64,000 nucleotides of DNA. It comes from Alphaproteobacteria bacterium (GTDB lineage: Bacteria > Pseudomonadota > Alphaproteobacteria > Micavibrionales > UBA2020). A program made the position numbers and the translations under genes. The notes below the pieces were generated by a model. That model saw nothing but the letters and a program-made list of their open reading frames with translations. It did no database searches and had not been told where the DNA came from. Positions 3,551 to 46,030 of this stretch are shown here, piece by piece (positions within the stretch are counted from its first letter, which is position 1; every line of letters begins with the position of its first letter). The DNA is taken from NCBI GenBank assembly GCA_016124645.1, contig WGNE01000019.1, positions 25,699 through 89,698 on the forward strand, given 5' to 3'.

Positions 3551-3985
3551 TTACCGCCCGCGCCGCCTGACCTGCAGGGGCTGCTTGAAAATGGCGAGGG
3601 GCTTTTTCACGGAAAGATCGGCCAGTTCCGCGTCCAGCTGTTTTTTCGCCGCTTCGGTCAAAATCTTTATTGCCGGTTTCTGTTTTTTCGCGCGGGCGTG
3701 GTCGAGCGCGGTCTTGCCCGCGTTGTCGCGGTCGTGCAGCTTCGCGCCGCGCGCGACGAGTTCGGTGACCAGCCGGTGGCGGCAGTGGTAGGAAGCCCAC
3801 ATCAGGGGCGTCATGCCCTCCCCGTCGCGGGCGTCCAGCGGCGCCCCTTGTTCCAGCAGGGCCATCACGCGGGCTTCCAGCCCGGCGTTGCCGCTCGCGC
3901 CGTTGCGCGGCGTGCCGAGCTCCTTCAGCAATTCGCGGCCCAGCGGGTCTTCGGCCATCTGGTTGAAATCGTCCTTTACCGTCAT
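3551..3985 (-). CDS. Ankyrin-repeat protein
   Basis: 144 aa. ANK consensus stretches: GMTPLMWASYHCRHRLVTELVARGAKLHDRDNAGKTALDHA. Confidence 0.8.
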   Translation of the reverse strand: MTVKDDFNQMAEDPLGRELLKELGTPRNGASGNAGLEARVMALLEQGAPLDARDGEGMTPLMWASYHCRHRLVTELVARGAKLHDRDNAGKTALDHARAKKQKPAIKILTEAAKKQLDAELADLSVKKPLAIFKQPLQVRRRGR

Positions 3986-4815: not shown

Positions 4816-5142
4816 CTAGACGGTGCTTTCGATGCGAAAGCTTTCCAGCCCGTCGTACTCTGCGGGTTCGCTGTGCACTTTGTCAACCCGCGCCATCATC
4901 GGCCCGTGGCGGCAGGCGCGCAGGAGGTCATCGACCGCATGGGCCTCCCCGTGCAGCAAGGCCTCCACGCTGCCGTCGGCGCGGTTGCGCACCCAGCCGT
5001 GGATCTCGCGCTCCAGCGCCTCGCCCTGCAGCCAGCGGCGATAGCTCACCCCCTGCACGAAGCCGTGGACGAAGACGCGCACGGTCTCGCGCGGCGCGGC
5101 GGCGGCGGTGGCGTCCTGGTTATCGGATGTCGTCGTGTTCAT
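4816..5142 (-). CDS. acyP: Acylphosphatase
   Basis: 108 aa with the acylphosphatase signature VRVFVHGFVQGVSYRRW...GWVRNRADGSVEALLHG. Confidence 0.85.
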   Translation of the reverse strand: MNTTTSDNQDATAAAAPRETVRVFVHGFVQGVSYRRWLQGEALEREIHGWVRNRADGSVEALLHGEAHAVDDLLRACRHGPMMARVDKVHSEPAEYDGLESFRIESTV

Positions 5143-5174
5143 GTCCCTACACCTCCTTCAAAAGGAGCGGTGCG

Positions 5175-6599
5175 TCACTGAACCGCCAGTATCAGGCAGT
5201 TCCCCTGCAATACGCGGCAGACGTAGGCGGCCTGCGCGCGGTCGAAACCGGCGAGGCGGGCGCGGTAAATCACGCCCCGGTTGGTCATCAGCGGCGCGAT
5301 GACGTAAACGCTGTTGTTGGAAAGATGGTCGGGCAGCTGCTCGCGCGCGTTGCGCAGCGCGAAAAGGCTGGCGTCATGGCTGGAAAAGGCGCCGACCTGC
5401 ACGGCCCATGTGCCGGCCGCCTGCTGCGCGCCGCGCGCCGCGTCCAGCATCCCGACGGGGGCGCGGTAGGCGGTGCGGATGCGCTTGGCCGGCATGATGC
5501 GGTTGGCGGCGATGGAATCGTCCTCGGCCGCGCCGTCGCCCTGTTCGTCCGCGGGCACGAGGCTCATGGCGTCAAACGGCGTTTCCCCCCGCGCGACCTG
5601 CGTTGCGGAAGCATCCGCCGTATCGGCGGCTGTCGCCACTTCGGCCACGGTCGCGGCGTGGCGCAGGCCGACGGGCGTCGCCACCGGCTTGTGGCGCGGC
5701 ACCGCGTCGTTGGCGGCAAGGCGCAGGTTGTTGGAAATCAGGCGGGCGATGCGCGGCTCGTTGATGCGCGCGAAGCCGGTATCCAGCAGGCGGGCCATGG
5801 TCTTGTTGCGGCTGGCGGCCGTCTTGCCGCCGAAGACCACGCCGATGATCCGGTGGCCGTTGCGGCGGGCGGAGGACACGAGGTTGTAGCCCGAGGCGTA
5901 GATATAGCCGGTCTTCATCCCGTCCGCGCCGGCATAGGTTTCCAGCAGCTTGTCGTGGTTGGGGTATTCGATGCCCGCATAGGTGAAGCTGGGCGTGCTG
6001 AAGTAATGGTAATAGCGCGGGAAGTCGCGGATGAGCGCCTGGGCCAGGTGCGCCATGTCGCGCGCGGTGGTGTATTGCGATTTGTCCGGCAGGCCCGAGG
6101 CGTTGCGGAAATGCGTGTGGCTCATGCCCAGCTGGCGCGCCTTGCGGTTCATCATGTCGGCGAAGGATTTTTCGCTGCCGTTCGCCAGCGACTCGCCCAG
6201 AACGACGGCGGCGTCATTCGCGGATTTGGTGACGAGAGCGAGGATCGCGTCTTCCGCGCGGATGGTATAGCCCGCCTTCAATCCGAGTTTGGAGGGCGAC
6301 TGGTATTGCGCATGGGTGGAAATGCTCAGGCGCTGGTTCTTGGTCAGGGTGCCGTTTTCCAGCGCCTCGAAGGTCAGGTAGAGCGTCATCAGCTTGGTGA
6401 GCGAAGCGGGGTAGCGGCGCGCATCGACGTTGTGGGACAAAAGAATGGTGCCGCTGGAGGCGTCCATGACCAGCTCGGCGGAACGGTCGGGGCGCGGTTT
6501 GTGGTAGCGGTGGCGCGCCTCGGCGCTGTTCACCGGCGCGACGGCGAAAAAAATCACGGCGGCCAGCAAGGTGGCCTTGAAGAAATTTTTCAATTTCAT
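5175..6599 (-). CDS. D-alanyl-D-alanine carboxypeptidase (PBP5/6, S11 family) with a C-terminal SPOR domain
   Basis: Start chosen at MKLKNFFKATLLAAVIFFAVAPVNSAEA (signal peptide, ATG 6599). Motifs: SxxK (ASLTKLMT), SxN (KSANDAA) and KTG (MKTGYI). The C-terminal region is SPOR-like (WAVQVGAFSSHDASLFAL...YRARLAGFDRAQAAYVCRVL). Confidence 0.85.
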   Translation of the reverse strand: MKLKNFFKATLLAAVIFFAVAPVNSAEARHRYHKPRPDRSAELVMDASSGTILLSHNVDARRYPASLTKLMTLYLTFEALENGTLTKNQRLSISTHAQYQSPSKLGLKAGYTIRAEDAILALVTKSANDAAVVLGESLANGSEKSFADMMNRKARQLGMSHTHFRNASGLPDKSQYTTARDMAHLAQALIRDFPRYYHYFSTPSFTYAGIEYPNHDKLLETYAGADGMKTGYIYASGYNLVSSARRNGHRIIGVVFGGKTAASRNKTMARLLDTGFARINEPRIARLISNNLRLAANDAVPRHKPVATPVGLRHAATVAEVATAADTADASATQVARGETPFDAMSLVPADEQGDGAAEDDSIAANRIMPAKRIRTAYRAPVGMLDAARGAQQAAGTWAVQVGAFSSHDASLFALRNAREQLPDHLSNNSVYVIAPLMTNRGVIYRARLAGFDRAQAAYVCRVLQGNCLILAVQ

Positions 6600-6739: not shown

Positions 6740-7010
6740 AATTCAAGGCTAATTTTACAATCCCGCTTCGAAAAAACATAAAACGGGAGAGACGGCGCAA
6801 ACGCGGTGTCATCGTGCCGCGCTGCGAATTCAAGAGGATGCATGGGCAAGCGTCCGGCGGCGCGCTTGCCCGCGCTTGCGGACATGGAAGGGGGGTACCG
6901 CTCTTAACGGCAATGTACTATATTGAAAGAAGATATTTTGCGCGCGCGGATTTCGCGGGTTTCGCGGGCCGTTTTGCCCGCGCCGGGGTTTTCCGCCCGT
7001 TTTGGGGGAT

Positions 7011-7403
7011 ATGGTGACTCAACGCTTTGATATAAAAAGGATTTCAGGCGAATCTGCGCCCGTCACGGGCGGGGAAGGCGACGACGACCGGCGCCAGCCG
7101 CCCGGCCGCACCGACGTCGGCGTGCTCACCCGCACGCGCACGCGCACGAAAAAGCCCTCCATGTACCGCGTGCTTTTGCTCAACGACGATTTCACGCCGA
7201 TGGATTTCGTCGTCCACGTGCTGGAAAAATTCTTCGCCAAGAACCGGCAGGAGGCGACGGAGATCATGCTCAACGTCCACCGCCGCGGCGTGGGCGTCTG
7301 CGGCGTCTTCACCTACGAGGTCGCGGAAACCAAGGTCAACATGGTCATGGACTACGCCCGCAAGAACGAACACCCGCTGCAATGCACGATGGAAAAGGAA
7401 TAG
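7011..7403 (+). CDS. clpS: ATP-dependent Clp protease adaptor ClpS
   Basis: Core sequence [24 protein letters not shown]...[27 protein letters not shown]. The start is either ATG 7011 or TTG 7002. Confidence 0.9.
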
Positions 7404-7439
7404 CGCGAAACGCGCAGGAAAAGGAATAAGGGAAGCCGC

Positions 7440-9761
7440 ATGCTGTCACGCAATCTCGAACAGACCCTGCACCGCGCGCTGGCCTATGCCAATGCGCGCC
7501 ATCATGAATTCGCCACGCTCGAGCACCTGCTGCTCGCGCTGACGGAAGATCAGGACGCCGTCGCCGTCATGCGCGCCTGCGGGGTGGATCTCGACCTTTT
7601 GCGGCAGGAGCTGCAGCACTACGTGGACGTCGAGCTGCAAAACCTCGTCCACCCGGCCTCGGACGAGGCCAAGCCGACCTCCAGCTTCCAGCGCGTCCTG
7701 CAGCGCGCCGCCATCCACGTGCAGTCCTCCGGCCGGGAAGAGGTGACGGGGGCCAACGTGCTCGTCGCCCTGTTCTCCGAGCGCGAGAGCAACGCCGTCT
7801 ATTTCCTGCAGGAACAGGAGATGACGCGCTTCGACGCCGTCAACTACATCTCCCACGGCATCGCCAAGGTGCCGGGCCAGACCGAAAGCCGCCCCGTCCA
7901 CGGCGCGGACGAGGAGATGGGCGAGGAAAACGTCATCAAGAAGGGGCGCGAGGCGCTGGACGCCTATTGCATCAACCTCAACAACAAGGCGATCAAGGGC
8001 CGGATCGACCCGCTCATCGGGCGGGAGGAGGAGGTCGAGCGCACCATTCAGGTGCTCTGCCGCCGTTCCAAGAACAACCCGCTCTACGTCGGCGACCCCG
8101 GCGTGGGCAAGACCGCCATCGCCGAAGGGCTCGCCCGCCGCATCACGGAGGGCAAGGTGCCCGAGGTGCTCAAAGACGCCACCATCTACGCGCTCGACAT
8201 GGGCGCGCTGCTGGCCGGCACGCGCTACCGCGGCGATTTCGAGGAACGCATCAAGTCGGTGCTGACCGAGCTCGAGGGCATCGAGCACGCGGTGCTCTTC
8301 ATCGACGAGATCCATACCGTCATCGGCGCGGGGGCGACCTCGGGCGGGGCGATGGACGCGTCCAACCTGTTGAAGCCTTCGCTTTCCAGCGGCACGCTGC
8401 GCTGCATCGGCTCCACCACCTACAAGGAATACCGCAACCACTTCGAGAAGGACCGCGCCCTCGTGCGCCGCTTCCAGAAGATCGACGTGAAGGAGCCCTC
8501 GCTCGACGACGCGGTGCGCATCCTGAAGGGGCTCAAGCCCTATTACGAGGAACACCACAAGGTGAAATACACCGACGAGGCGCTGCACGCCGCGGTCGAT
8601 CTTTCCGCGCGCTACATCGGCGACCGCAAGCTGCCCGACAAGGCCATCGACGTCATCGACGAGGCGGGCGCGGCGCAGATGCTGCTGCCCGAGGACAAGC
8701 GCAAGAAGACCATCGGCCTGAAGGACATCGAGGCGACGGTCGCGAAGATCGCGCGCATCCCGCCCAAGACGATGAACAAGGACGACCGCGAGGCGTTGTC
8801 AAACCTCGAGCGCGACCTGCGCACCATGGTTTTCGGGCAGGATCAGGCGATCGAGGCGATTTCCTCGGCCATCAAGCTGTCGCGCGCGGGGCTGCGCGAG
8901 CCGGAAAAGCCCATCGGCAGCTATCTGTTCTCCGGTCCGACGGGCGTGGGCAAGACGGAAGTCGCAAGGCAGCTCGCGAAAACGCTGGGGCTCGAGCTCA
9001 TCCGCTTCGACATGTCGGAATACATGGAGCGTCATTCGGTTTCCCGCCTCATCGGGGCGCCGCCGGGCTACGTCGGCTTCGACCAAGGGGGGCTCTTGAC
9101 CGACAAGATCGACCAGCACCCGCACAGCGTCGTGCTGCTCGACGAGATCGAGAAGGCGCACCCCGACCTCTACAATATCCTCTTGCAGGTCATGGACTAC
9201 GGCAAGATCACCGACAACAACGGCAAGACCATCGATTGCCGCAACATCATCCTCATCATGACGACCAACGCGGGCGCGGCGGAGCTGGCGAAGGCCTCCA
9301 TCGGCTTCGGCCGCACCATGCGCGACGGCGACGACGAAGAGGCGATCAACCGCACCTTCTCGCCCGAGTTCCGCAACCGGCTGGACGCCATCATCCCCTT
9401 CCGCGGCCTTTCGCCCGAAACCATCGGCCGCGTGGTGGACAAGTTCATCATGCAGCTCGAGGCGCAGCTGGGCGACCGCGGCGTGAGCATCGAGCTGACC
9501 GAGGCCGCCCGCCGCTGGCTGGGCGAAAAGGGCTACGACGCCGCCATGGGCGCCCGCCCGCTGGCGCGCACGATACAAGAGCACGTCAAGAAGCCGCTGG
9601 CCGAAGAACTTTTGTTCGGCCGCCTGACCAAGGGCGGCGCGGTGCGGCTGGACCTGAAGGACGGCAAGCTCGTCTTCGACTACCCGCCGCAGAAATCCGG
9701 CAAGCCGGGCAAGAAGTCCGGCGCGGCGAAAAAGCCTTCCGAACCCGAACACGTAAAGTAG
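7440..9761 (+). CDS. clpA: ATP-dependent Clp protease ATP-binding subunit ClpA
   Basis: 773 aa. Clp_N repeats at the N-terminus and two AAA+ modules (GDPGVGKTAI, GPTGVGKTEVARQLA). Confidence 0.95.
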   Translation: MLSRNLEQTLHRALAYANARHHEFATLEHLLLALTEDQDAVAVMRACGVDLDLLRQELQHYVDVELQNLVHPASDEAKPTSSFQRVLQRAAIHVQSSGREEVTGANVLVALFSERESNAVYFLQEQEMTRFDAVNYISHGIAKVPGQTESRPVHGADEEMGEENVIKKGREALDAYCINLNNKAIKGRIDPLIGREEEVERTIQVLCRRSKNNPLYVGDPGVGKTAIAEGLARRITEGKVPEVLKDATIYALDMGALLAGTRYRGDFEERIKSVLTELEGIEHAVLFIDEIHTVIGAGATSGGAMDASNLLKPSLSSGTLRCIGSTTYKEYRNHFEKDRALVRRFQKIDVKEPSLDDAVRILKGLKPYYEEHHKVKYTDEALHAAVDLSARYIGDRKLPDKAIDVIDEAGAAQMLLPEDKRKKTIGLKDIEATVAKIARIPPKTMNKDDREALSNLERDLRTMVFGQDQAIEAISSAIKLSRAGLREPEKPIGSYLFSGPTGVGKTEVARQLAKTLGLELIRFDMSEYMERHSVSRLIGAPPGYVGFDQGGLLTDKIDQHPHSVVLLDEIEKAHPDLYNILLQVMDYGKITDNNGKTIDCRNIILIMTTNAGAAELAKASIGFGRTMRDGDDEEAINRTFSPEFRNRLDAIIPFRGLSPETIGRVVDKFIMQLEAQLGDRGVSIELTEAARRWLGEKGYDAAMGARPLARTIQEHVKKPLAEELLFGRLTKGGAVRLDLKDGKLVFDYPPQKSGKPGKKSGAAKKPSEPEHVK

Positions 9762-9767
9762 GACACC

Positions 9768-10685
9768 ATGATCGCAGAAAGCCGCAGCCATATATTGGTC
9801 GTGGAGGCCAACGACGTCACGCGCAAGCTGATCATCGGCATCCTCAACAACAAGGGCTATGAAACCTACGAGGCCACCAACGGCGACGAGGCGGTGAACT
9901 TCCTCGCGAAAAAGCCGCTGCTCGTCATCCTCGACGTCGAGGGCGAGAACGTCGATAACATCGGGTTCATCCGCAAGATGCAGATGGAGCACCGCAAGGT
10001 GCCGCTCGTCGCCATGCTGGAGGGGGCGGACCGCGAATCCGTCCGCGCGCGGCTCGACATGCCCAACGTCTCCTTCCTTGAAAAGCCGGTCATGCCCAAC
10101 ACGCTGCTCGAGAACATCGAGGGCCACCTGATGCCCGGCGTGGAAGAGGCGATACGGGCGGAGGAAGAGGCGAAGTTCCTGCCCGAAACCGTGGCCGCCA
10201 CGGCCGAAGTGCAGGCGCAGCGCGAAGGCTTCATGCGCCGCGCCATCGACCTCTCGCAGATCAAGATGGACGAGAACTGCGGCGGGCCCTTCGGTGCGGT
10301 CATCGTGCGCGCGGGCAAGATCATCGCCGAGGGCTGGAACTGCGTGACCTCCACCAACGACCCCACCGCGCACGCGGAAATGGTCGCCATCCGCGCCGCG
10401 GCGAAGGAAGTCGGCGACTTCACGCTGGAAGGCTGCGAGATCTACACGAGCTGCGAGCCCTGCCCGATGTGCCTCGCCGCCATCTACTGGGCGCGGCTGG
10501 ACCGCATGTTCTACGCCAATATGCGCGAGGACGCCGAGCGCATCGGCTTCGACGACGCCTTCCTCTACAACGAAATTTCCCTGCCGGAACACAAGCGGCA
10601 GCTTCCCACGCAGCGCATGCTGCGCGAGGAGGCGCGCATCGTCTTCGACAACTGGATGAAAAAGCCGGACAAGACGGATTACTAG
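9768..10685 (+). CDS. Response-regulator receiver domain fused to a guanine deaminase (CDA-fold, Bacillus GuaD type)
   Basis: 305 aa. REC part: HILVVEANDVTRK...LLVILDVEG...FLEKPV. Deaminase part: GGPFGAVIV, TNDPTAHAEMVAIR (HAE zinc/catalytic motif), YTSCEPCPMCLAAIYWAR (PCxxC), GFDDAFLY. It starts 6 nt after the clpA stop. Confidence 0.85.
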   Translation: MIAESRSHILVVEANDVTRKLIIGILNNKGYETYEATNGDEAVNFLAKKPLLVILDVEGENVDNIGFIRKMQMEHRKVPLVAMLEGADRESVRARLDMPNVSFLEKPVMPNTLLENIEGHLMPGVEEAIRAEEEAKFLPETVAATAEVQAQREGFMRRAIDLSQIKMDENCGGPFGAVIVRAGKIIAEGWNCVTSTNDPTAHAEMVAIRAAAKEVGDFTLEGCEIYTSCEPCPMCLAAIYWARLDRMFYANMREDAERIGFDDAFLYNEISLPEHKRQLPTQRMLREEARIVFDNWMKKPDKTDY

Positions 10686-10712
10686 CGGTCTGCCGAAAAG
10701 CGCCCCTTCGTT

Positions 10713-10736
10713 CCCTCTCCCGCAGGCGGGAGAGGG
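10713..10736. repeat. GC-rich palindromic element, family B, copy 1
   Basis: Sequence CCCTCTCCCGCagGCGGGAGAGGG, followed by the related arm ttagggagcgggga. Confidence 0.55.
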
Positions 10737-10817
10737 TTAGGGAGCGGGGATCGGAAAAACGGAAAAGTTGAAAAATGCTTGCAGGTACCGAACATCTTGA
10801 AAACCACCCTCTCCCCC

Positions 10818-10850
10818 GCCCTCTCCCGCAAGCGGGAGAGGGGGCTTTTT
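10818..10850 (+). terminator. GC-rich palindromic element, family B, copy 2, with a T-tract (terminator-like)
   Basis: Sequence CCCTCTCCCGCaaGCGGGAGAGGG followed by ggcttttt. It is preceded by the related arm ccctctcccccgc. It has the same stem as copy 1, 105 bp upstream. Confidence 0.5.
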
Positions 10851-10917
10851 GCGCGTTTTTCCTGTTTTGCGGCGGACTGCCGGGGATTTTCACCATACCG
10901 AACCGGAGGACTGAAAC

Positions 10918-11610
10918 ATGAAATGCGAAATCATCGGCGACACCGCCTTTCCCATGCTGCGCGCCGAACTCGGCAAGGGCGAGAGCATCAAGGCCGAATC
11001 CGGCGCGATGGTCGCGATGTCGGACACCGTCCACCTGACGGGCAAGGCCGAGGGCGGCATCGGCAAGGCGCTGGGGCGCATGCTTTTGACGCGCGAGAGC
11101 TTCTTCTTGCAAAACCTGCACGCCAAGGAAGGCCCGGGCTGGTGCCTGCTGGCCAGCGCGACGCCGGGCGAGATCGCGGCGGTCGAGGTCGAGCAGGGAC
11201 GCCACCTCGTCGTGCAAAAGGGCGGCTTCCTCGCCGGCACGACGGGCATCGAGGTCGCGAGCAAGATGCAGGGGCTCGGCAAGGGGCTGATGTCGGGCGA
11301 GGGCTTCTTCGTCGTGAAGATCGGCGGCCACGGCACGGTCTATCTGGCCACCTACGGCTCCATCTACCCCCTGACGCTGGGCAAGGGGGAGGAGGTCGTC
11401 ATCGACAACGGCCACCTCGTCGCCTGGGACGGCGACATGCAGTACAAGATCACCAAGGGCGCGAAAAGCTGGATGGGCGCGATGTTCACCACCGGCGAGG
11501 GGCTGGCCTGCCGCTTTTACGGGCCGGGCCGCGTGCTGATCCAGACGCGCAACCCGCAACAGCTGGGTGCGTGGATATCGCCCTATATCATCTTCCCGCG
11601 GCGCGGATAG
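10918..11610 (+). CDS. AIM24 / TIGR00266 (DUF124) family protein
   Basis: 230 aa. Family-typical N-terminus MKCEIIGDTAFPMLRAELGKGESIKAESGAMVAMS and a glycine-rich core. Confidence 0.8.
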   Translation: MKCEIIGDTAFPMLRAELGKGESIKAESGAMVAMSDTVHLTGKAEGGIGKALGRMLLTRESFFLQNLHAKEGPGWCLLASATPGEIAAVEVEQGRHLVVQKGGFLAGTTGIEVASKMQGLGKGLMSGEGFFVVKIGGHGTVYLATYGSIYPLTLGKGEEVVIDNGHLVAWDGDMQYKITKGAKSWMGAMFTTGEGLACRFYGPGRVLIQTRNPQQLGAWISPYIIFPRRG

Positions 11611-11727
11611 GGCGCGAAAGCGCCGTTGCGAAACAAGTATTTGAAAACAATAATTTTTATCACTAGAATGAAACGCAAAGGGTCAGAAAGCCGCCGTCGC
11701 GGCGGCGCCGTTTTTCAGGGGGATTGC

Positions 11728-12942
11728 ATGCACAGGTTTTTCGGACGTCAGGTCATCGCGGCGGCGCGCGGCGCGTCGCGCATAAGAACGGCCGGTATCG
11801 CCGCCGTCTTTCTTGCGCTGGCCTTCTGCCCGCAGGCGCAGGCGGCGGGCAACGCGCCCTCGACGGCGGCCCCCGCCCAGCCCGCCGCCCAGCAACAGGA
11901 CCAGCCCGCGCCCGTCCGTTTCCGCGAATTCGACATCACCCGGCCCTTCCGCGCGGTGGATCCGCAGACGCTCAGGGCCGAGGGGCTGTTCATCCACCTC
12001 TGGGGCATCCGCCCCGCGCAGACCTCCGAAACGCCGCTGCAGCTCAAGGCGCTGGACCTCATGGACAGCCTCATTCAGGAACAGCGCGTGACCTGCCACG
12101 TCGTCGGCGGCGCCATGCCCGAGCTCGTCGCGCGCTGCGCCACGCAGAACAACCAGGACCTCGCGCTCGAGCTTTTGCGCGCGGGCTTCGCGGTGGTCGA
12201 TCGCCGCCAGACCTATGATTCCGTCTTCGCCACCGCCTATGAAAAGGCGCAGGAAAGCGCGCGTCTGGCCAGCAAGGGCGTCTGGACCTACGTCAACCAG
12301 GAAAACAGCGACAAGAACAGCCTCATCCCCGCGTGGCTCAAGCCGCATATGGACGTGCTGCTGCCCGTCGCCATCATCTTCTTCCCCTTCGGCGGGATGA
12401 TGATCGTGGCGCTCATCATGTGGTACTGGCTGAAACGCATGGCCGACCTGCAGCAGATGGAAGCCGAGCAGTCGAGCCGCAAGGAGGAGATGCTCCAGAC
12501 CCGCGAGCGGCAGGTGCTGGTCTCCACCCTCGAGGGCGAGCTCATCGAGAACAAGAACAAGATCGAGGCCTTCCTCGTCATCTACGGCGACATGCTGCGC
12601 TCGCTGCAGGACAGCAGCGAAGTGCCCAAATACCAGCAGGGCGGCGACATCGTGCAAAAGCACCCCGGTTTCGGCCGCACGGTGTTCGAAACGAACGTCG
12701 GCAAGCTGTCCCTGCTCGACATCAAGCTGGCGGGGCTGATCTCCAAGCTCTACAGCTCGATGCCCAAGGAGCAGGAATACATCAACCTCGAGCCCGACGT
12801 GCCGCTGGACACCGCCATCAAGCTGGTGGAAAAGGTGCTGAAGGAGGCCGAGGAGCTGCTCAAGCCGATCAACCTCGTCATCGAGCGCCTGCAGGGCGGC
12901 GGGTCGGAACGCAAGGCCCGCGCGCCGCAGCCGCCGCAATAA
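11728..12942 (+). CDS. Membrane protein with an N-terminal exported thermonuclease (SNase)-like domain, one TM helix and a C-terminal coiled-coil region
   Basis: Start at ATG 11728, with AGGGGG 6 nt upstream. Signal-like AAVFLALAFCPQAQA. SNase-like pattern LFIHLWGIRPAQ...RVTCHVVG...ARCATQNNQDLALELLRAGFAVV...YEKAQESARLASKGVW. TM segment VLLPVAIIFFPFGGMMIVALIMWYWL. The domain call rests on pattern only. Confidence 0.5.
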   Translation: MHRFFGRQVIAAARGASRIRTAGIAAVFLALAFCPQAQAAGNAPSTAAPAQPAAQQQDQPAPVRFREFDITRPFRAVDPQTLRAEGLFIHLWGIRPAQTSETPLQLKALDLMDSLIQEQRVTCHVVGGAMPELVARCATQNNQDLALELLRAGFAVVDRRQTYDSVFATAYEKAQESARLASKGVWTYVNQENSDKNSLIPAWLKPHMDVLLPVAIIFFPFGGMMIVALIMWYWLKRMADLQQMEAEQSSRKEEMLQTRERQVLVSTLEGELIENKNKIEAFLVIYGDMLRSLQDSSEVPKYQQGGDIVQKHPGFGRTVFETNVGKLSLLDIKLAGLISKLYSSMPKEQEYINLEPDVPLDTAIKLVEKVLKEAEELLKPINLVIERLQGGGSERKARAPQPPQ

Positions 12943-15236: not shown

Positions 15237-15372
15237 ATTGTCCTCCTTCCTTCAAGCGCCGTCTTGGCCAGCGCCGCGCGCGCCGGATGCGAAAACCGCC
15301 CCTGAAAAAAGCCGCCCCCGGGCATCGCGCATGCCGCGCCCGGCGGGGCATAAAAAAGAACAAGGTGGGTCA

Positions 15373-17559
15373 TTGATCCGGCAGTACGAACTGGTTGAAC
15401 GCATCAAGTCATACGATCCCGAGATGGACGAGGATCTGGTCAACCGCGCCTATGTCTATGCGATGAAGATGCACGGCGCGCAGACCCGCGCCTCGGGCGA
15501 TCCCTATTTCTCCCACCCGCTGGAAGTGGCCGGCATATTGACCGAGATGAAGATGGACACGGCTTCCGTCTGCACCGCGCTGCTTCACGACACGGTCGAG
15601 GACACCGACGCCACGCTCGAGGACATCCGCAAGCACTTCGGCGAGGAAGTTGCGCGGCTGGTCGATGGCGTGACCAAGCTGTCCAAGATCGAGTTCCAGA
15701 GCGCGCAGGAAAAACAGGCGGAAAACTTCCGCAAGCTCGTCCTCGCCATGTCGGAGGACATCCGCGTGCTGCTGGTCAAGCTGTCCGACCGGCTGCACAA
15801 CATGCGCACGCTGCACCATATCCCCAAGCCCGACAAGCAAAGGCGCATCGCGCTCGAGACGCTGGAGATCTACGTGCCGCTCGCCGAGCGCATCGGCATC
15901 CACAAGATCAAGGAGGAGCTGGAGGATTTGTCCTTCTCCGTCCTCAACCCCGAGGCGCGCGAAAGCATCAACACCCGCCTCAACTACCTGCGCGCGGAAG
16001 GCGGGGAGGCGATCGTCGCCCGCATCATCGAGGAACTGAAGAAGAAGCTGCTCGAAGCCGGGCTGGACGCCGACATCTACGGCCGCGAAAAGACCAAATA
16101 TTCCATCTGGAAGAAGATGCAGCGCAAGAACATCTCCTTCGAGCAGCTCTCGGACATCATGGCTTTCCGCATCATGGTGCCCGGCGTGGCGGATTGCTAC
16201 CACGCGCTGGGCGTCATCCACGGGCTCTACCCCACCGTGCCGGGCCGCTTCAAGGACTACATCTCCCTGCCCAAGCCCAACGGCTACCGGTCGCTGCACA
16301 CCACCGTCATCGGCCCCGAAAACCACCGCATCGAGGTGCAGATAAGAACGCCGCAGATGCACGAGGAAGCAGAGCTCGGCGTGGCCGCGCACTGGGCCTA
16401 CAAGCAGGGCGACGGCAAGGAGGCGGGGGCCAAGGGCGGCAAGAAGACGGACGGGCGGCAATACCGCTGGCTGCGCGAGCTGATGGACATCGTCGAGCAC
16501 GCCCAGCGGCCGGAAGAGTTTCTTGAAAACACCAAGCTGGAGCTTTACCAGGACCAGGTTTTCTGCTTCACGCCCAACGGCGACCTCATCTCCCTGCCGC
16601 GCGGGGCGACGCCGGTGGATTTCGCCTATGCCGTGCATTCCGACCTCGGCGACAAGACGGTGGGCGCCAAGATCAACGGGCGCATCGTGCCGCTCAACAC
16701 CCAGCTCGGCAACGGCGACCAGGTCGAGATCACCACCTCGAAAAGCCAGACGCCCAGCCCCAACTGGGAACGCTTCGTCGTCACCGGCAAGGCCAAGGCG
16801 CGCATCCGCCGCTTCGTGCGCATGCAGCAGCGCGAGCAATACATGGACCTCGGCAAGCAGATGCTGCAAAGGGTTTTGCGGCAGGAGGGCCACGAGCTCA
16901 ACGAGCGCAACTTCAACCACGAGATTTTCCGCCAGTTCCGCACCGACAACTACGAGGACATGCTGACCGGCATCGGCTCCGGCCATATCGTCGCGCGCGA
17001 GGTCTTCTACGCTCTGCACCCCGACAGCCGCCCGCGCGAGAACCAGCCCGGCCCGCAGCAGATCGTCGTGCCGGAAAAGAAGACGCACCAGAAGGGCAAG
17101 TCAGCCCCCATGCCCATCAAGGGGCTCATCCCCGGCATGGCGCTGCATTTCGCGCGCTGCTGCCACCCGCTGCCGGGCGACCGCATCGTCGGCATCGTCA
17201 CCACCGGCAAGGGCGTGACCATCCACACCATCGACTGCGACACGCTGGAAAGTTTCGCCGACACGCCGGAACGCTGGCTGGACGTGAGCTGGGACGAGGG
17301 CGAGGACAGCCCGGAATCGCACGTCGGCCGCTTGCTCGTCACCATCTCGAACGAGCCGGGGGCGCTGGGCACGCTCTCCACCGTCATCGGCAAGAACGGC
17401 GGGAACATCAACAACCTGAAGATCATGAACCGCGCGCTCGACTTCTGGGACATGATGATCGACGTCTATGTGCGCGACAGCCGGCACCTCAGCGATATCA
17501 TCGCCGCCTTGAGGGCCACGCCCGAAATCACCTCCGTCAACCGCGCGCGCAGCCGTTGA
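15373..17559 (+). CDS. spoT: Bifunctional (p)ppGpp synthetase/hydrolase (RelA/SpoT homologue)
   Basis: HD domain (HGAQTRASGDPYFSHPLEVA), synthetase domain (YRSLHTTV), and TGS and ACT regions. I prefer the TTG start at 15373 (LIRQYELVERI), with AAGGTGGG upstream. The track ORF starts at 15238. Confidence 0.95.
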   Translation: MIRQYELVERIKSYDPEMDEDLVNRAYVYAMKMHGAQTRASGDPYFSHPLEVAGILTEMKMDTASVCTALLHDTVEDTDATLEDIRKHFGEEVARLVDGVTKLSKIEFQSAQEKQAENFRKLVLAMSEDIRVLLVKLSDRLHNMRTLHHIPKPDKQRRIALETLEIYVPLAERIGIHKIKEELEDLSFSVLNPEARESINTRLNYLRAEGGEAIVARIIEELKKKLLEAGLDADIYGREKTKYSIWKKMQRKNISFEQLSDIMAFRIMVPGVADCYHALGVIHGLYPTVPGRFKDYISLPKPNGYRSLHTTVIGPENHRIEVQIRTPQMHEEAELGVAAHWAYKQGDGKEAGAKGGKKTDGRQYRWLRELMDIVEHAQRPEEFLENTKLELYQDQVFCFTPNGDLISLPRGATPVDFAYAVHSDLGDKTVGAKINGRIVPLNTQLGNGDQVEITTSKSQTPSPNWERFVVTGKAKARIRRFVRMQQREQYMDLGKQMLQRVLRQEGHELNERNFNHEIFRQFRTDNYEDMLTGIGSGHIVAREVFYALHPDSRPRENQPGPQQIVVPEKKTHQKGKSAPMPIKGLIPGMALHFARCCHPLPGDRIVGIVTTGKGVTIHTIDCDTLESFADTPERWLDVSWDEGEDSPESHVGRLLVTISNEPGALGTLSTVIGKNGGNINNLKIMNRALDFWDMMIDVYVRDSRHLSDIIAALRATPEITSVNRARSR

Positions 17560-21367: not shown

Positions 21368-22135
21368 ATGCTCAAAAAGATATTCAGCAAAGTCAGCGGC
21401 AGGCCGGAGCAGCAGCTCTGGAACGACGCGCTGCGCGCCGCCGCCATCAAGGGCGACCTGAAAAAGGCCCAAAAAGCCATCGCCAAGGGGGCGGAGATCG
21501 ACTGGAAGGACGTCAACGGCCTGACCCCGTTATACTTCGCCGCCACCAACGGGCATCTTGCCGTGGCCAAGCTGCTGCTCGAAAAAGGCGCGGCGGTCGA
21601 TACCGGCAAGCCGTGCGAGAACACCGGCACGGGGCTCACGCAGGCCGCCTATAACGGCGACGCGGAAATGCTGAAGCTGCTCATCGAACACAAGGCGGAT
21701 ATCAATGCGGGGTCTTACACCCGCTGCGCCATCCATGACGCGGTCTGGCGGAACAACGCCGAAGCCGTGGAGGTGCTGGCCGAAGCGGGCGCGAAGCTGG
21801 AAACGCGCGACCGCATGGGCCACACGCCGCTGATGGACGCGGTCGCCTTCAATTACCGCGAGGTCGCCCTTATCCTCGTGCGCCACGGGGCGGATGCTTC
21901 CGTGACCGACAAATACGGCGACGACATGCGCAAGGCCATGGTGCGCAAGGTCTGGCTGGACGTGGTCGAGGCCATCGATACGTACAAGGCCGAGGCCGCC
22001 GCGCGCGAGGCCGCCCGCCTCAAGGCAGAAGAGCAGGCCGCCGCCGCGCGCGAAAAGGCGCTGGACGAAGCGGCCACCCTGCAGCGCGACGTGAAGGTCA
22101 GCCGCCCGCTGGTGGTGAAACGCCGCCAGCCGTAA
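21368..22135 (+). CDS. Ankyrin-repeat protein
   Basis: 255 aa with several ANK units (NGLTPLYFAATNGHLAVAKLLLEKGAAVD; GHTPLMDAVAFNYREVALILVRHGAD) and a C-terminal Ala/Glu-rich helix. Confidence 0.8.
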   Translation: MLKKIFSKVSGRPEQQLWNDALRAAAIKGDLKKAQKAIAKGAEIDWKDVNGLTPLYFAATNGHLAVAKLLLEKGAAVDTGKPCENTGTGLTQAAYNGDAEMLKLLIEHKADINAGSYTRCAIHDAVWRNNAEAVEVLAEAGAKLETRDRMGHTPLMDAVAFNYREVALILVRHGADASVTDKYGDDMRKAMVRKVWLDVVEAIDTYKAEAAAREAARLKAEEQAAAAREKALDEAATLQRDVKVSRPLVVKRRQP

Positions 22136-23815: not shown

Positions 23816-25015
23816 TTATTTTTCCGGTGAATCCTTCGCGTCCGCGCGCTTGAGCTTGTAGCGCGGGATGGCGGCAAGGTAGGGCGCGGCCGTATGTTCG
23901 GCGAGCGCCTTGCGGCTCGGCGGCAGCGTGTCGCCCAGCGCTTCCCGCCGTCCTTCATAACGCGGGTCGATATAGGCGGCGATCGTGTACCAGAAATAGG
24001 CGTCGAAGGGGCTTTTGGCGTCGCCCAGCCCGCGTTCGAACAGCTTGGCCAGCAGGGCCGCCGCGGGCGCGCTGTCGCCCGACAAGCCCGCGGGCGCGAG
24101 CAGCCGGTGGGCCTTGCTGTAGTCTTGCGGCACGTTCCTGCCCTCGATATAGGCCTTGGCAAGGGCGAATTGCGCTTCGTGCTGGTTGGCGTCCGCCGCT
24201 TGCTCCCAGTATTCGACGGCTTTCTTTCCGTCCTGCTTCAGCCCGCCGCGCCCTGCGTCGTAATAAAGGCCGAGGCGGTAGAGCGCGTCGCCGTCGCCCG
24301 CGCGCGCCGCCCGGTCGTACCAGCTGGCGGCGAGGCTTTCGTTCGCCGTCACGCCTTCGCCCTTTTCGAACATGCCGCCGACGGCGGTATCGGCCGGCAC
24401 GAAGCCGAGGGTGGAAGCCGTCTGGTAATCCTTCATCGCCTCCGCCGCGTCGGGCGCGGTGCCCAGCCCCTGTTCATAGCAGCGGCCGAGGTGGTAAAGC
24501 GCGAGCCGGTCGCCCTTTTTCGCCGCGGCCTGGTAAAGCGCGAAGGCGGTGTCGAGGTCGCGCGCCAGCACGGTGCCGTTCTCGTACATCGTGCCCAGCA
24601 CGGCCTGCGACATGGGCTCGCCCGCTTTCGCGGCCCTTTTCAGCCAGCGGGCCGATTCCCTGAAATCCTTCCTCACGCCAAGGCCGATGGCGTAGATGAA
24701 GCCGAGCTCTCGGTCGGCCATGAAGAACCCCTGCGCGGAGGCCTTCTTGTACCATTTGATCGCCTCGCCCATATTCGGCTGCGTGCCCGCGCCGGTCTTG
24801 TAGTCGCTGGCGAGGTTGTATTGCGCCTCGGGGTCGCCGTCCTTCGCGGCTTTTTCGTCGAGCCTGAACATCTCGTCCCGCTGCCGGCCAAGAAGGGCGA
24901 TTTTGTGCCGGCAGGAATACGCCTGCTCGTCGCAGCCGTAGATATTCGCGCGCGCGCCCGTGGCGGCGCCGCACAGCAGCATGATGACGGATAAAGACAA
25001 AAACGCGCGCCGCAT
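23816..25015 (-). CDS. Secreted Sel1-repeat (SLR) protein
   Basis: Start at MRRAFLSLSVIMLLCGAATGARA (ATG 25015, AGAGGGGA upstream). Multiple Sel1 units are present, e.g. GDPEAQYNLASDYKTGAGTQPNMGEAIKWYKKASAQG and GEPMSQAVLGTMYENG. Confidence 0.8.
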   Translation of the reverse strand: MRRAFLSLSVIMLLCGAATGARANIYGCDEQAYSCRHKIALLGRQRDEMFRLDEKAAKDGDPEAQYNLASDYKTGAGTQPNMGEAIKWYKKASAQGFFMADRELGFIYAIGLGVRKDFRESARWLKRAAKAGEPMSQAVLGTMYENGTVLARDLDTAFALYQAAAKKGDRLALYHLGRCYEQGLGTAPDAAEAMKDYQTASTLGFVPADTAVGGMFEKGEGVTANESLAASWYDRAARAGDGDALYRLGLYYDAGRGGLKQDGKKAVEYWEQAADANQHEAQFALAKAYIEGRNVPQDYSKAHRLLAPAGLSGDSAPAAALLAKLFERGLGDAKSPFDAYFWYTIAAYIDPRYEGRREALGDTLPPSRKALAEHTAAPYLAAIPRYKLKRADAKDSPEK

Positions 25016-25104
25016 GGCAATTCCCCTCTCTGCTTCAAGGCTAGGGGCGGGGGGCGCGGCTGTCAATCTTGGAAAGCCCCGGTGTTGAAAGCCCCGGCCG
25101 GACC

Positions 25105-42062: not shown

Positions 42063-43539
42063 ATGACAAGCGTGGAAAAAAACGGGACTGAAGCGGGCGC
42101 GCAAAACGCGTCTTTTGAAAAATATGCGCGCATCGACGGGCCCGTCGTCATGCTGGGCTTCGGCTCCATCGGGCGCGGCACCCTGCCGCTGATCGAGCGC
42201 CATTTCGACTTCGACCCGAAACGGCTTGTCGTGGTCGATCCCGACGATTCCAACAAGGAACTGGCCGAGCAGCACGGCGCGCGCTTCATCAAGCAGGCGA
42301 TCACCAAGGACAATTACCGCGAAGTCCTCACCCCCCTGCTGACCGAGGGCGGGGGGCAGGGCTTTTGCGTGAACCTGACCGTCGATGTTTCCTCCCTCGA
42401 CCTCATGCGCCTCTGCCGCGAGCTGGACACGCCCTATATCGACACGGTGGTCGAGCCTTGGCTGGGGTTTTACTTCGATGAAAGCCTCGACCCGTCCGAG
42501 CGTTCCAACTACGCACTGCGCGAGGCGGTGCTGGAAGAACGCCGCAAGAACCCCGGCGGCACCACCGCCGTTTCCTGCTGCGGGGCCAATCCCGGCATGG
42601 TGTCGTGGTTCGTGAAGCAGGCGCTGCTCGACGTCGCGAAGGATACGGGCGCGGGCACGGAAGTGCCGAAGACCCGCGCGGACTGGGCGAAGCTGATGCA
42701 GAAGGCGGGCGTGAAGGGCATCCACATCGCCGAGCGCGACACGCAGCGCGCGCCACCCCAAGCCGTTCCATACCTTCGTCAACACATGGTCGGTCGAGGG
42801 TTTCATCTCCGAAGGCATGCAGCCGGCGGAGCTGGGCTGGGGCACGCATGAAAAATGGATGCCGCCCAGCGCGCGCCGCCATGAAAAGGGCTGTCAGGCC
42901 GCCATCTTCCTGATGCAGCCGGGCGCGGATACGCGGCTTTACAGCTGGTGCCCCACGCCGGGCCCGCAGTTCGCGTGGCTGGTCACGCATAACGAGTCGA
43001 TCTCGATCGCCGATTATTTCACCGTGGGCGAGGGCGCGCAGCCCGACTACCGCCCCACCTGCCACTACGCCTACCACCCGGCCAACAACGCCGTGCTCTC
43101 GCTCATCGAGATGTTCGGTTCCGGCAAGCCGCAGGAAAAGCACCACATTCTGGACGAGGCCGAGATCGTGAACGGCAAGGACGAGCTGGGCGTCTTGCTC
43201 TTCGGCCATGCGAAGAACGCCTATTGGTACGGCTCGCAGCTTTCCATCGAGGAAACGCGCGCGCTGGCCCCCTACCAGAACGCGACCGGCCTGCAGGTGA
43301 CATCCGCCGTGCTGGCGGGCATGGTCTGGGCGCTGGAAAACCCGAACGCCGGCATCGTCGAGGCGGATGAAATGGATTTCGCGCGCTGCCTTGAAGTGCA
43401 AAAGCCCTACCTCGGCCCCGTCAAGGGCTACTATACGGACTGGACGCCGCTGCAGGGCCGCCCCGGACTTTTCCCCGAGGACATCGACCCCGAAGACCCC
43501 TGGCAGTTCCGCAATATCCTCGTGCATCCGGCGGCCTGA
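42063..43539 (+). pseudogene. hss: Homospermidine synthase split by a single-base frameshift (pseudogene or sequencing error)
   Basis: ORF 42063-42851 carries the N-terminal half (RIDGPVVMLGFGSIGRGTLPLIERHF...IHIAERDTQRA). The homologous sequence continues in the +1 frame (…PKPFHTFVNTWSVEGFISEGMQPAELGWGTHEKW…) to 43539. The switch lies near 42745-42760 (gcgcgcgccacccc). The total span is 1477 nt, which is 3n+1. Confidence 0.85.
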
Positions 43540-43683: not shown

Positions 43684-44625
43684 TCAGGCCGCTTTCGGGC
43701 CGGAGGGTTTCGGCTTGTTCCTGATGACGGGCGTCTGCGTCCCGTTGTCGTTCGCGCTTTCGACCTCCGGCGCGGGCGGGCGCAGGTGCATGTCGCGGCG
43801 GTAGGCGGGGTCGGTCAGGATATCCGCCGCGCCCGGCTGCAAAAGATAGGGCAGCGGGCAGATGCCGTGCAGCTTTTCCAGCCATTCCGCGTCCAGCGGC
43901 GCGTTCACCATCCCGTGGTCCTTGAAAATCTCGTCCCGCCCCTTGGCGAGGAAGGGGACCATGAGGTCCACGGTATGCTGGTTGTAATGCGCAAGGCGCG
44001 AGTCCTTGGCGAACCACGCATCGAAAGCCACGCGTTTCGCGCGGCCGTCGTCGAGGGACGACGGGTCTTGCGTGGCGATCTTTTCAAAAGCGTCGCAGAT
44101 GCCTTCGTAGCCCACCTGTTTCGCGGCTTCCCACGGCGCGTCGTCGCCCGCCAGCTTCAGCCGCCAGGCGACCTGCGTCGCCGCGGCCTGCGCGTCGGCT
44201 TCCTGCAGGCGGTAGAACAGGATGGCGTCGGCTTCATCCAGGATGCGGTCGGGGTTGCCCACGCCGCTCAGGTGCTGGCGGATGTGCTGCGCCTCATGGA
44301 CGAGGGCTTGCAGGATGTTGTCGTCGCTCAGCTCTGACTGCAGGATGACTTCCGGCGTCTTGTAGCTGTACCGCCCGTTCTTCACCCCGGTGATGAGCAG
44401 AGTGGAGGCGGCGGCGTGGTTGCGGGTGTCGTCCTTCAGGTGGATCTGGACCTTGTGCGCGGCGAGGAAATCGGCGACCTCCTTGCCCTCCGGCACGCGG
44501 GCGAGGCGTTGCAGGATGGCGTCCAGACGGGCGGTATGGCCGCCCGGCGGGGATGCGTTGTTGAACTCTTCTTTCAAGCGCGGGTCGCTTTTTGTTGTTT
44601 TTGGATAGCAAGCGGATTGTATCAC
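43684..44625 (-). CDS. Hypothetical protein with an HExxH zinc-metallopeptidase-like motif
   Basis: 313 aa. LVHEAQHIRQH, followed by acidic residues about 19-30 aa downstream (DEADAILFYRLQEADA). No N-terminal signal peptide is evident. The C-terminus is Pro/Lys-rich. Confidence 0.5.
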   Translation of the reverse strand: MIQSACYPKTTKSDPRLKEEFNNASPPGGHTARLDAILQRLARVPEGKEVADFLAAHKVQIHLKDDTRNHAAASTLLITGVKNGRYSYKTPEVILQSELSDDNILQALVHEAQHIRQHLSGVGNPDRILDEADAILFYRLQEADAQAAATQVAWRLKLAGDDAPWEAAKQVGYEGICDAFEKIATQDPSSLDDGRAKRVAFDAWFAKDSRLAHYNQHTVDLMVPFLAKGRDEIFKDHGMVNAPLDAEWLEKLHGICPLPYLLQPGAADILTDPAYRRDMHLRPPAPEVESANDNGTQTPVIRNKPKPSGPKAA

Positions 44626-45941: not shown

Positions 45942-46030
45942 ATTCCGGCTTTCCGGTCTTGTATCGGGCCGATGGCCGCGTTATAAAGTCTGACACAGAT
46001 TCGACACGGTTTATTCATAGCACGCGAAAG

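Follow-up and report, generated by a model that had tools for sequence, protein, structure and literature searches.

A degenerate receiver domain joined to a predicted guanine deaminase in a gene that follows clpS-clpA in Micavibrio-like Alphaproteobacteria

We describe a gene from a 64,000-nucleotide stretch of an alphaproteobacterial contig (WGNE01000019.1, positions 25,699 to 89,698; this whole stretch is called the window below) that follows clpS and clpA and encodes, in one polypeptide, a receiver-like N-terminal domain and a predicted guanine deaminase. The receiver-like domain lacks two of the five receiver active-site residues, whilst the deaminase domain keeps all of its zinc and catalytic residues. 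Our preferred explanation, to which we give a probability of about 0.6, is that the protein is an active guanine deaminase co-expressed with ClpS and ClpA, and that the receiver-derived domain now works independently of phosphorylation as a dimerisation or partner-binding module. The combination of domains is rare and unstudied. It is not a new kind of system; rather, the protein is a response regulator of the atypical class whose metabolic output is unusual, and it is confined to one alphaproteobacterial clade.

Results

The N-terminal domain has the receiver fold and lacks two active-site residues

The 305-residue protein is identical to a database protein (P0001) from an alphaproteobacterial metagenome-assembled genome (MAG), to which NCBI gives the name 'response regulator'. 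A preliminary description of this DNA, made from its letters alone, had proposed that the N-terminal ~120 residues are a CheY-like receiver, and profile searches agree: Pfam Response_reg (PF00072) matches residues 9-117 at 42.6 bits (E=7.7e-11; gathering score 30.2), and dozens of receiver domains of known structure are matched by the first 131 residues, with E values of 1e-10 to 1e-4. We modelled the protein with AlphaFold2 (AF2) from a 72-sequence alignment. In the model, residues 8-120 form a classical (beta-alpha)5 receiver, with strands at 8-12, 32-36, 52-56, 80-84 and 101-105 and helices at 16-28, 39-46, 62-74, 89-96 and from 110 onwards, and residues 146-298 form a cytidine-deaminase fold.

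To locate the active-site residues we used alignments with solved receivers and with CheY. CheY D12/D13 correspond to E13/A14, D57 to D56, T87 to L84 and K109-P110 to K106-P107. The phospho-acceptor Asp and the Lys are retained, the acidic pair is E-A and the switch residue is Leu, all as the preliminary description had read them. According to a 2025 review in J Bacteriol (PMC12632262), a receiver without any one of five active-site residues is a pseudo-receiver, and the protein that carries it an atypical response regulator. The window protein fails this five-residue test because its Mg2+-binding second Asp and its Thr/Ser are both lost, and by that definition its sequence makes the N-terminal domain a pseudo-receiver and the protein an atypical response regulator. 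A pseudo-receiver, or else a non-canonical mode of activation, had been suggested at the outset, and loss of the second acid extends to 105 of the 113 family members considered below.

The model as a whole has a mean predicted local distance difference test score (pLDDT) of 89.4 and a predicted TM score (pTM) of 0.58. Both domains exceed a pLDDT of 90; residues 121-150, which join them, fall to 50-63 and carry large indels across the family. With this pTM and a disordered linker, no confident receiver-deaminase interface could be called in the AF2 model. The low pTM and linker pLDDT, together with the hypervariability of the linker, indicate two rigid domains that would be held on a flexible tether of about 30 residues with no fixed interface.

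The C-terminal domain is a GuaD-type deaminase

The C-terminal ~155 residues had been said to align almost end to end with the guanine deaminase of Bacillus subtilis (GuaD), with zinc and catalytic residues intact. Both statements proved correct. A phmmer search of the PDB gave an ungapped alignment of residues 152-305 with the whole of GuaD (1wkq/1tiy), in which 77 of 154 positions are identical (50%; E=2e-46); the alignment spans 1tiy residues 3-156 (E=2.7e-46). Pfam dCMP_cyt_deam_1 matches residues 151-250 at 91.9 bits. The HAE (H202, E204) and PCPMC (C232, C235) motifs supply every zinc and catalytic residue, and the substrate-site residues F26, N42 and D114 of GuaD have their equivalents in F175, N191 and D263. 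The terminal tyrosine, Y305, is the very last residue of the protein. Catalysis in a homologous guanosine deaminase depends on the C-terminal Tyr and its free carboxylate, which re-cap the active site (PMC9739398); an accessory domain could therefore be added only at the N-terminus. The zinc and catalytic residues are kept in 109 of the 113 family members, and in almost every one the F/N/H/E/C/C/D/Y set is the same as in GuaD. In every respect that sequence can show, the catalytic half thus belongs to the B. subtilis GuaD family, and is apparently a catalytically competent, zinc-dependent enzyme of that type that would act on guanine.

A Foldseek search with the AF2 model returned 1wkq as the best match and Arabidopsis guanosine deaminase as the next. 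The root-mean-square deviation (rmsd) to 1wkq is 17.7 Å at a TM score of 0.75 for the monomer model, which is consistent with the comparison of an unswapped model with a domain-swapped crystal dimer.

Other types of deaminase were considered, and GuaD was a far better match than GSDA, TadA or NE0047. The tRNA adenosine deaminase TadA, dCMP deaminase and RibD were rejected: the NCBIfam TadA model scored only 77 bits against a cut-off of 150, and the TadA match had an E value of 1e-19 or weaker, compared with 2e-46 over the full length for GuaD. A plant-type guanosine deaminase is less likely, with an identity of 37-41% against 50% and a sequence alignment that ends before the C-terminal segment. 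We also rejected a defence or toxin deaminase; PADLOC's sole match, at 26 bits, was between the zinc motif and a model for dCTP deaminase, and the neighbours are housekeeping genes.

A narrow family with a graded series of receivers

We searched 5.8 billion proteins, clustered at 90% identity, for relatives. More than 110 clusters share the length and the three Pfam matches, at 45-84% identity to the query, and recurrence in so many sequence clusters argues that the two-domain protein is not a chance product. All named members come from metagenome bins labelled 'Alphaproteobacteria bacterium' or 'Micavibrio sp.' (NCBI taxonomy still places Micavibrio under Bdellovibrionota), and their database labels vary between 'response regulator', 'deaminase', 'guanine deaminase' and 'TadA/CheY-like'. 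Three database matches of 330-364 residues (P0113-P0115) were set aside as tandem deaminase domains on sparsely gene-called contigs, unrelated to the fusion.

As a census of architectures, 1.84 billion cluster representatives (50% identity) were searched exhaustively with HMMER. Only about 4-5 representatives have the full-length architecture (P0094, P0107, P0144 and P0240, plus fragments). The remainder of the top 150 are stand-alone deaminases of ~155-165 residues, or deaminases with unrelated N-terminal additions such as a phosphoribosyltransferase domain or HEAT repeats. Literature searches on guanine deaminase with receiver, on Micavibrio with guanine deaminase, and on deaminase outputs in response-regulator censuses found nothing relevant, and the word 'deaminase' occurs 0 times in the pseudo-receiver review (PMC12632262). 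The architecture is, as had been supposed, unusual, and we did not find it to be common or already characterised.

The three parts of the protein evolve differently: mean pairwise identity among 72 members is 71% for the deaminase, 44% for the receiver and 19% for the linker, so that the receiver is still constrained. E13, D56 and K106-P107 are kept in at least about 90% of members. Among the 101 full-length members, D56 is present in 96, K106-P107 is invariant, and E13, N15 and D16 are at least 90% conserved. The position of CheY D13 is Pro in 57 of these, Asn in 15, Lys in 12 and Ala in 4, with Gly, Arg, His and Ser also seen; over all 113 members it is acidic in only nine, five of which are short forms without the phospho-Asp. 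At the position of CheY T87 the 101 have Thr (38), Ala (21), Ser (18) or Leu (12), i.e. Thr or Ser in only about half.

Sorted by receiver state, all five residues are kept in four of the 113 members (P0009, P0111, P0112 and P0144), the second acid alone is missing in 48, and the second acid and Thr/Ser are both missing, as in the window protein, in 43. Five have Asn at the phospho-site, about 10 are short forms of ~247 residues in which the phospho-Asp is also lost, and three are in other states. The residues lost would be exactly those that serve phosphochemistry alone, with the E13-D56-K106 triad having a structural role; apo-CheY has a structural salt-bridge network that is able to explain the retained triad. 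In the short forms, alpha3-beta4-alpha4 is deleted and the phospho-Asp is replaced. They retain the beta1-alpha1 signature ExND[IV]TR[KR]L, and AF2 predicts their N-terminal domain as a four-stranded module, with pLDDT values of 86-96 over residues 1-80.

When the deaminase domains are placed in a neighbour-joining tree with GuaD as the root, P0111, P0112 and P0144, whose receivers are canonical (E-D/D/T/K), branch beside the stand-alone deaminases. The basal position of these canonical forms points to an ordinary, phospho-regulated receiver-deaminase as the probable ancestor, with decay of the receiver later; we propose this tentatively, as a simple distance tree allows only weak inference of ancestry. 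The receiver of P0144 scores 87 bits and is fully canonical, yet its deaminase site is altered (PCALS; locus L022, 1115-1999). In P0240 (L023, 4504-5340) the deaminase site appears to be dead or altered, with AKA in place of HAE, PCPLS and no terminal Tyr. That both genes are still kept close to clpA and AIM24 is a hint that some lineages use the protein in a non-catalytic role.

The gene follows clpA throughout most of the clade

The preliminary description had placed the gene on the clpA strand, starting 6 nt after the clpA stop, and had suggested that it is co-transcribed with clpS-clpA. The junction is as stated, with the TAG of clpA at 9759-9761, a 6-nt spacer and the ATG of the gene at 9768; an AGGA overlaps the clpA stop codon, at a distance of 5 nt from the ATG. 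The gene here shares its frame with clpA, starting two codons past the TAG, and we considered a ClpA-deaminase read-through fusion. This was ruled out because the spacings in relatives (-11, -1, 3, 4, 5, 14 nt etc.) keep no common frame.

We compared 25 related loci: ten species-representative genomes, contigs of divergent members and seven metagenome loci, with a duplicate of the window (L021) excluded. Genome and metagenome pattern scans gave 11 and 7 loci with one peptide pattern, and the census is a sample, not exhaustive. In the ten species-representative genomes the order is PBP5-like carboxypeptidase(s) on the opposite strand, clpS, clpA, the deaminase gene, AIM24, an SNase-like membrane protein, (UDG), NYN, rpoZ and spoT; ClpA is ~86% identical in these genomes and the receiver-deaminase ~60%. 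Over all related loci ClpA is 74-89% identical, and clpS lies upstream of clpA wherever there is enough sequence. The clpA gene is directly upstream of the deaminase gene in 23 of the 25 loci, several with overlapping stop and start codons; the position is conserved, in support of the suggested co-transcription. The gap is between -11 and +101 nt in 22 of the 25 (-11 in two near-identical contigs, -1 in four loci and mostly 3-59 nt otherwise); a Micavibrio MAG (L004) has 646 nt (7355-8000), compared with 32 nt or less in its relatives. A further contig (L020) has 1.6 kb of upstream sequence without clpA and is uninformative. The link to clpA persists where the downstream genes differ (rhomboid, M48 peptidase and LemA in L012) and where ClpA is only 74% identical (L022).

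A terminator scan of the window found no plus-strand terminator-like site between 7403 and 10819, and co-transcription of the gene with clpS-clpA is well supported by the spacing of the genes. The 232-nt spacer between the gene and AIM24 (10686-10917) has a minimum free energy of -109 kcal/mol (z=-4.75) and carries the palindrome CTCTCCCGCnnGCGGGAGAG twice; it occurs nowhere else in the 64 kb, where 0.01 copies would be expected. Each copy can fold into a hairpin of its own, or the two can pair together, and the second lies in a 10-bp G+C-rich stem (10819-10842) followed by a T-run (to 10852), a terminator-like arrangement before AIM24. In compact relatives the gene and AIM24 are separated by -1 to 48 nt, and the distance is 11-48 nt in most relatives; the longer spacer in the window looks like a miniature insertion or a repetitive extragenic palindromic (REP)-like element that also supplies the terminator-like hairpin. 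The gene-AIM24 junction is a recurrent insertion point, with an insert of ~1.5 kb in five other loci (L001, L003, L024, L028 and L029). The insert was a candidate site for a partner kinase; the one examined, in L024, holds an unrelated 454-residue minus-strand open reading frame (ORF; 4924-6288) and not a kinase. AIM24/DUF124 and a ~330-residue SNase-like protein with predicted membrane segments always lie together downstream, even in L023, where clpA is separated. Matches to the SNase-like protein in tblastn start at residue 104 in all relatives.

The nearby spoT had also been thought possibly relevant. Its distance was given about correctly; its proximity carries no weight, since synteny in the clade extends over the entire clpS-clpA-gene-AIM24-nuclease-NYN-rpoZ-spoT block. 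Apart from spoT, the one further guanine-nucleotide gene noticed in the window is gmk (guanylate kinase; 45959-46711, plus strand), 35 kb from the deaminase gene, with nothing to indicate linkage. Pfam scans of ~45 window genes found no histidine kinase or Hpt protein (HisKA, HATPase, Hpt), PADLOC found no defence context in the window, and Rfam at gathering thresholds gave no match anywhere in the 64 kb.

Discussion

Role of the N-terminal domain

In our preferred explanation, the receiver-derived domain would be tethered N-terminally to a GuaD-type enzyme by the ~30-residue flexible linker. Because A14 replaces the Mg2+-ligand Asp and L84 replaces the phosphoryl-binding Thr/Ser, the pseudo-receiver most likely no longer uses canonical His-to-Asp phosphotransfer. 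The active sites of GuaD-type enzymes are formed across the two subunits of a dimer. Since many pseudo-receivers are, moreover, constitutive dimers (PMC12632262), a role in dimerisation is plausible: the N-terminal domain would probably be a phosphorylation-independent dimerisation or partner-binding module, modulating an enzyme whose activity depends on dimer assembly, and the free C-terminal Tyr would cap the deaminase active site. The gene would be the third cistron of the clpS-clpA unit. Its synthesis would be tied to that of ClpS and ClpA because the junctions are tight and often overlap and because, in the window, the terminator-like hairpin comes after the gene.

Several points weigh against this explanation. 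One member of the core clade, P0009, has E-E and hence a full acidic pair, and the conserved D16, two residues past the lost Mg2+ ligand, could conceivably stand in as a metal ligand. Conservation of D56 and K106 in about 90% of members or more would be expected also if phosphorylation persisted. The sequence would allow guanosine, as well as guanine, as the substrate. As for the operon, co-transcription is read from spacing only. In two loci (L016 and L023) three or four inserted genes, some on the opposite strand, separate the upstream clpA from the deaminase gene by 2.4 and 3.7 kb, and linkage to clpA is for that reason not obligatory. All loci come from one slowly rearranging clade, so that adjacency may reflect inheritance and not selection.

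The protein could instead be a working response regulator, in which D56 accepts phosphoryl groups from acetyl phosphate, a phosphorelay or an orphan histidine kinase. A non-canonical metal site, made of E13 together with N15/D16 or water, would assist, and phosphorylation would switch the deaminase, e.g. through receiver dimerisation. The retained D56, the invariant K106-P107, the conservation of E13, N15 and D16 and a receiver that passes the Pfam gathering score all fit, and the canonical relatives P0111, P0112 and P0144 suggest that the architecture began as a genuine response regulator. However, the dedicated Mg2+-ligand position varies freely and is often Pro, and L84 would be unable to hydrogen-bond a phosphoryl oxygen. 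Sublineages that have no D56, or have a third of the receiver deleted, still keep the protein and its genomic position; no kinase was found among the ~45 genes scanned in the 64 kb; and the known salt bridges of apo-CheY can explain the conserved triad. We regard a working regulator as unlikely, though worth keeping in mind. At the other extreme, the N-terminal domain might be an evolutionary remnant in decay that regulates nothing; the guanine deaminase would then be a constitutive housekeeping enzyme, and its position behind clpA would be inherited without functional meaning. A stepwise decay (from canonical to loss of D13, then of T87, then of D57 with internal deletion), a receiver that evolves much faster than the deaminase, the flexible linker with no predicted interface and the clade-wide synteny are all in keeping with this. 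Against it, the receiver is far better conserved than the linker, its alpha1 motif is almost invariant and its K-P pair invariant; no sampled member at the locus has lost the domain entirely, and even the internally deleted forms have a confidently folded N-terminal domain. Elsewhere a stand-alone GuaD of ~155-165 residues is the norm, and the keeping of 90-150 extra residues in >100 lineages implies selection. A mere remnant is, in our view, quite unlikely.

The position of the gene raises another possibility, that the pseudo-receiver is a Clp-docking module and the protein a ClpAP/ClpS-controlled substrate, or an adaptor or regulator of ClpA, that couples proteolysis with guanine catabolism. 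This would account for the adjacency of clpA in nearly all loci with its frequent stop/start overlaps, and for a link that outlasts both downstream synteny (L012) and the largest divergence sampled (L022). Retention of the distant members P0240 and P0144 with dead sites would fit a non-catalytic role, and RssB receiver models are among the better NCBIfam matches for the canonical members. Nevertheless, the similarity to RssB and CpdR is generic, as many unrelated response-regulator models score equally. Two lineages tolerate genes inserted between clpA and the deaminase gene, the whole 15-kb neighbourhood is syntenic in the clade, and the strong purifying selection on the deaminase site in nearly all members implies that catalysis is the main function. 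We therefore hold this reading to be very doubtful. A bolder reading, to whose two versions we jointly attach a low probability, gives the pseudo-receiver a new task in sensing or docking, as a physical link between guanine catabolism and ClpS-ClpA: ClpA or ClpS might bind the N-terminal domain and control turnover or assembly of the deaminase, or the degenerate acidic pocket might bind a small ligand, e.g. a guanine-derived nucleotide signal, by analogy with the pseudo-receiver of ShkA, which binds c-di-GMP (PMC7010744). If either version were true, signals of protein quality control or of starvation would have a new route, independent of phosphorylation, to the guanine/GTP pool of predatory Micavibrio-like bacteria.

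Features of the window

Table 1. Coordinates of the deaminase gene, its domains and key codons, and neighbouring elements in the window
Feature	Position	Strand	Basis or remark
Pseudo-receiver–guanine deaminase gene	9768..10685	+	305 aa plus stop; ORF listing
Receiver-like (beta-alpha)5 domain, residues 7-120	9786..10127	+	Pfam PF00072; AF2 five strands and five helices
Receiver key codons	E13 9804-9806; A14 9807-9809; D56 9933-9935; L84 10017-10019; K106 10083-10085
Variable linker, residues 121-150	10128..10217	+	helix alpha5 extension, then disordered segment; pLDDT 50-63
Cytidine-deaminase-fold guanine deaminase domain (predicted), residues 151-305	10218..10682	+	phmmer vs 1wkq/1tiy; Foldseek; conserved residues
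Deaminase key codons	H202 10371-10373; E204 10377-10379; C232 10461-10463; C235 10470-10472; D263; terminal Y305 10680-10682
clpS (ClpA adaptor), first gene of the unit	7002..7403	+	Pfam ClpS 124.9 bits; true start maybe downstream of the listed TTG
clpA (AAA+ unfoldase of ClpAP), 773 aa	7440..9761	+	Pfam Clp_N, AAA, AAA_lid_9, AAA_2, ClpB_D2-small
clpA stop / ribosome-binding site / start junction aagTAGGAcaccATG	9756..9770	+	read directly from sequence
Two copies of palindrome CTCTCCCGCnnGCGGGAGAG	10715-10734, 10821-10840 (element 10715..10852)	+	terminator scan
AIM24/DUF124-family gene, usual downstream neighbour	10918..11610	+	Pfam AIM24 223 bits; follows in most related loci
Membrane-associated SNase-like protein, conserved after AIM24	11626..12942	+	Pfam SNase 24.5 bits; true start probably downstream
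spoT/rsh	15238-17559		about 4.6 kb downstream of the gene

The window also encodes GcrA, in keeping with an alphaproteobacterium. A putative metallopeptidase of the DUF6782 family is encoded at 43684-44625 (minus strand), 33 kb from the deaminase gene; genes of the same family lie directly upstream of canonical-receiver members in L016 (1995-2903) and L020 (471-1421) and 4 kb downstream in L012 (11019-12059), and Peptidase_C93 genes accompany in L016 and L023. Saccharopine dehydrogenase is split into two overlapping plus-strand ORFs (42063-42851 and 42817-43539) that hold the NADP-binding N-domain and the C-domain, a split that may stem from a frameshift, pseudogene formation or misassembly. 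Ankyrin-repeat proteins are encoded at 3551-3985 (minus strand) and 21368-22135 (plus strand), and a Sel1-repeat protein at 23816-25066 (minus strand); eukaryote-like repeat proteins of this kind are typical of host- or prey-associated bacteria.

Implications

To our knowledge, nearly all receiver domains act on DNA-binding outputs or on a small set of signalling enzymes, and with a purine-base deaminase as output the range would extend directly to metabolism. The family also preserves, at a single locus, receivers in graded states of decay, the extremes being a canonical domain and a remnant with an internal deletion. Such a series could serve to study the origin and function of pseudo-receivers, a question that PMC12632262 describes as still unresolved. 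The conserved and often translationally coupled position behind clpA offers a concrete hypothesis, namely that proteolysis is coordinated with purine turnover. Micavibrio-like organisms are epibiotic predators that live on the macromolecules of their prey. The finding is a modest one, as both domains are well known and the family is phylogenetically narrow.

Comparison with known systems

The closest characterised relative is B. subtilis GuaD/YknA (1wkq, 1tiy), with which the window protein shares the ungapped alignment, the HxE and PCxxC motifs, the F/N/D substrate residues and the C-terminal Tyr. GuaD differs in being a stand-alone protein of 156 residues, whereas the window protein has a further 150 residues of receiver-like domain and linker at its N-terminus. 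GuaD is a domain-swapped dimer; the window protein is known here from its sequence and a monomer model. B. subtilis guaD lies outside any clp operon, unlike the window gene, and is described as a nitrogen-regulated purine-catabolism gene (Nygaard et al. 2000, as cited in PMC9739398). Arabidopsis guanosine deaminase GSDA (PDB 7dbf and related) has the same fold, with an rmsd of ~3 Å, and the same capping by a C-terminal Tyr. Its sequence alignment covers the core only (query 20-130), whereas that of GuaD reaches the last residue, and GSDA is nucleoside-specific and reported almost exclusively from plants (PMC9739398).

As a pseudo-receiver, the N-terminal domain resembles those of the PF00072 type that have been described as nested among canonical relatives (PMC12632262): it is an orphan, with no kinase nearby, and is likewise phylogenetically nested among canonical forms. 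Characterised atypical regulators mostly have DNA-binding outputs, whereas the output here is a purine deaminase, which we did not find described. RssB (ClpXP/RpoS) and CpdR (ClpXP, Alphaproteobacteria) also tie a receiver to a Clp unfoldase, although they serve ClpX and not ClpA, their sequence similarity to the window protein is only the generic similarity of receivers, and what prompts the comparison here is the genomic coupling to clpA. In RssB the receiver is fused to a degenerate enzyme-like domain; the deaminase of the window protein is, by its residues, catalytically intact in nearly all members of the family.

Response regulators with enzymatic outputs include the methylesterase CheB, the diguanylate cyclases PleD and WspR, and RpfG. 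The window protein shares with these an N-terminal receiver, a linker and a C-terminal enzyme, and in PleD and WspR the enzyme requires a dimerisation that the receiver controls. The receivers of all four are canonical and phosphorylated, whereas that of the window protein is without residues of the phosphochemistry, and its output, unlike theirs, is a cytidine-deaminase fold that is predicted to act on a free purine base.

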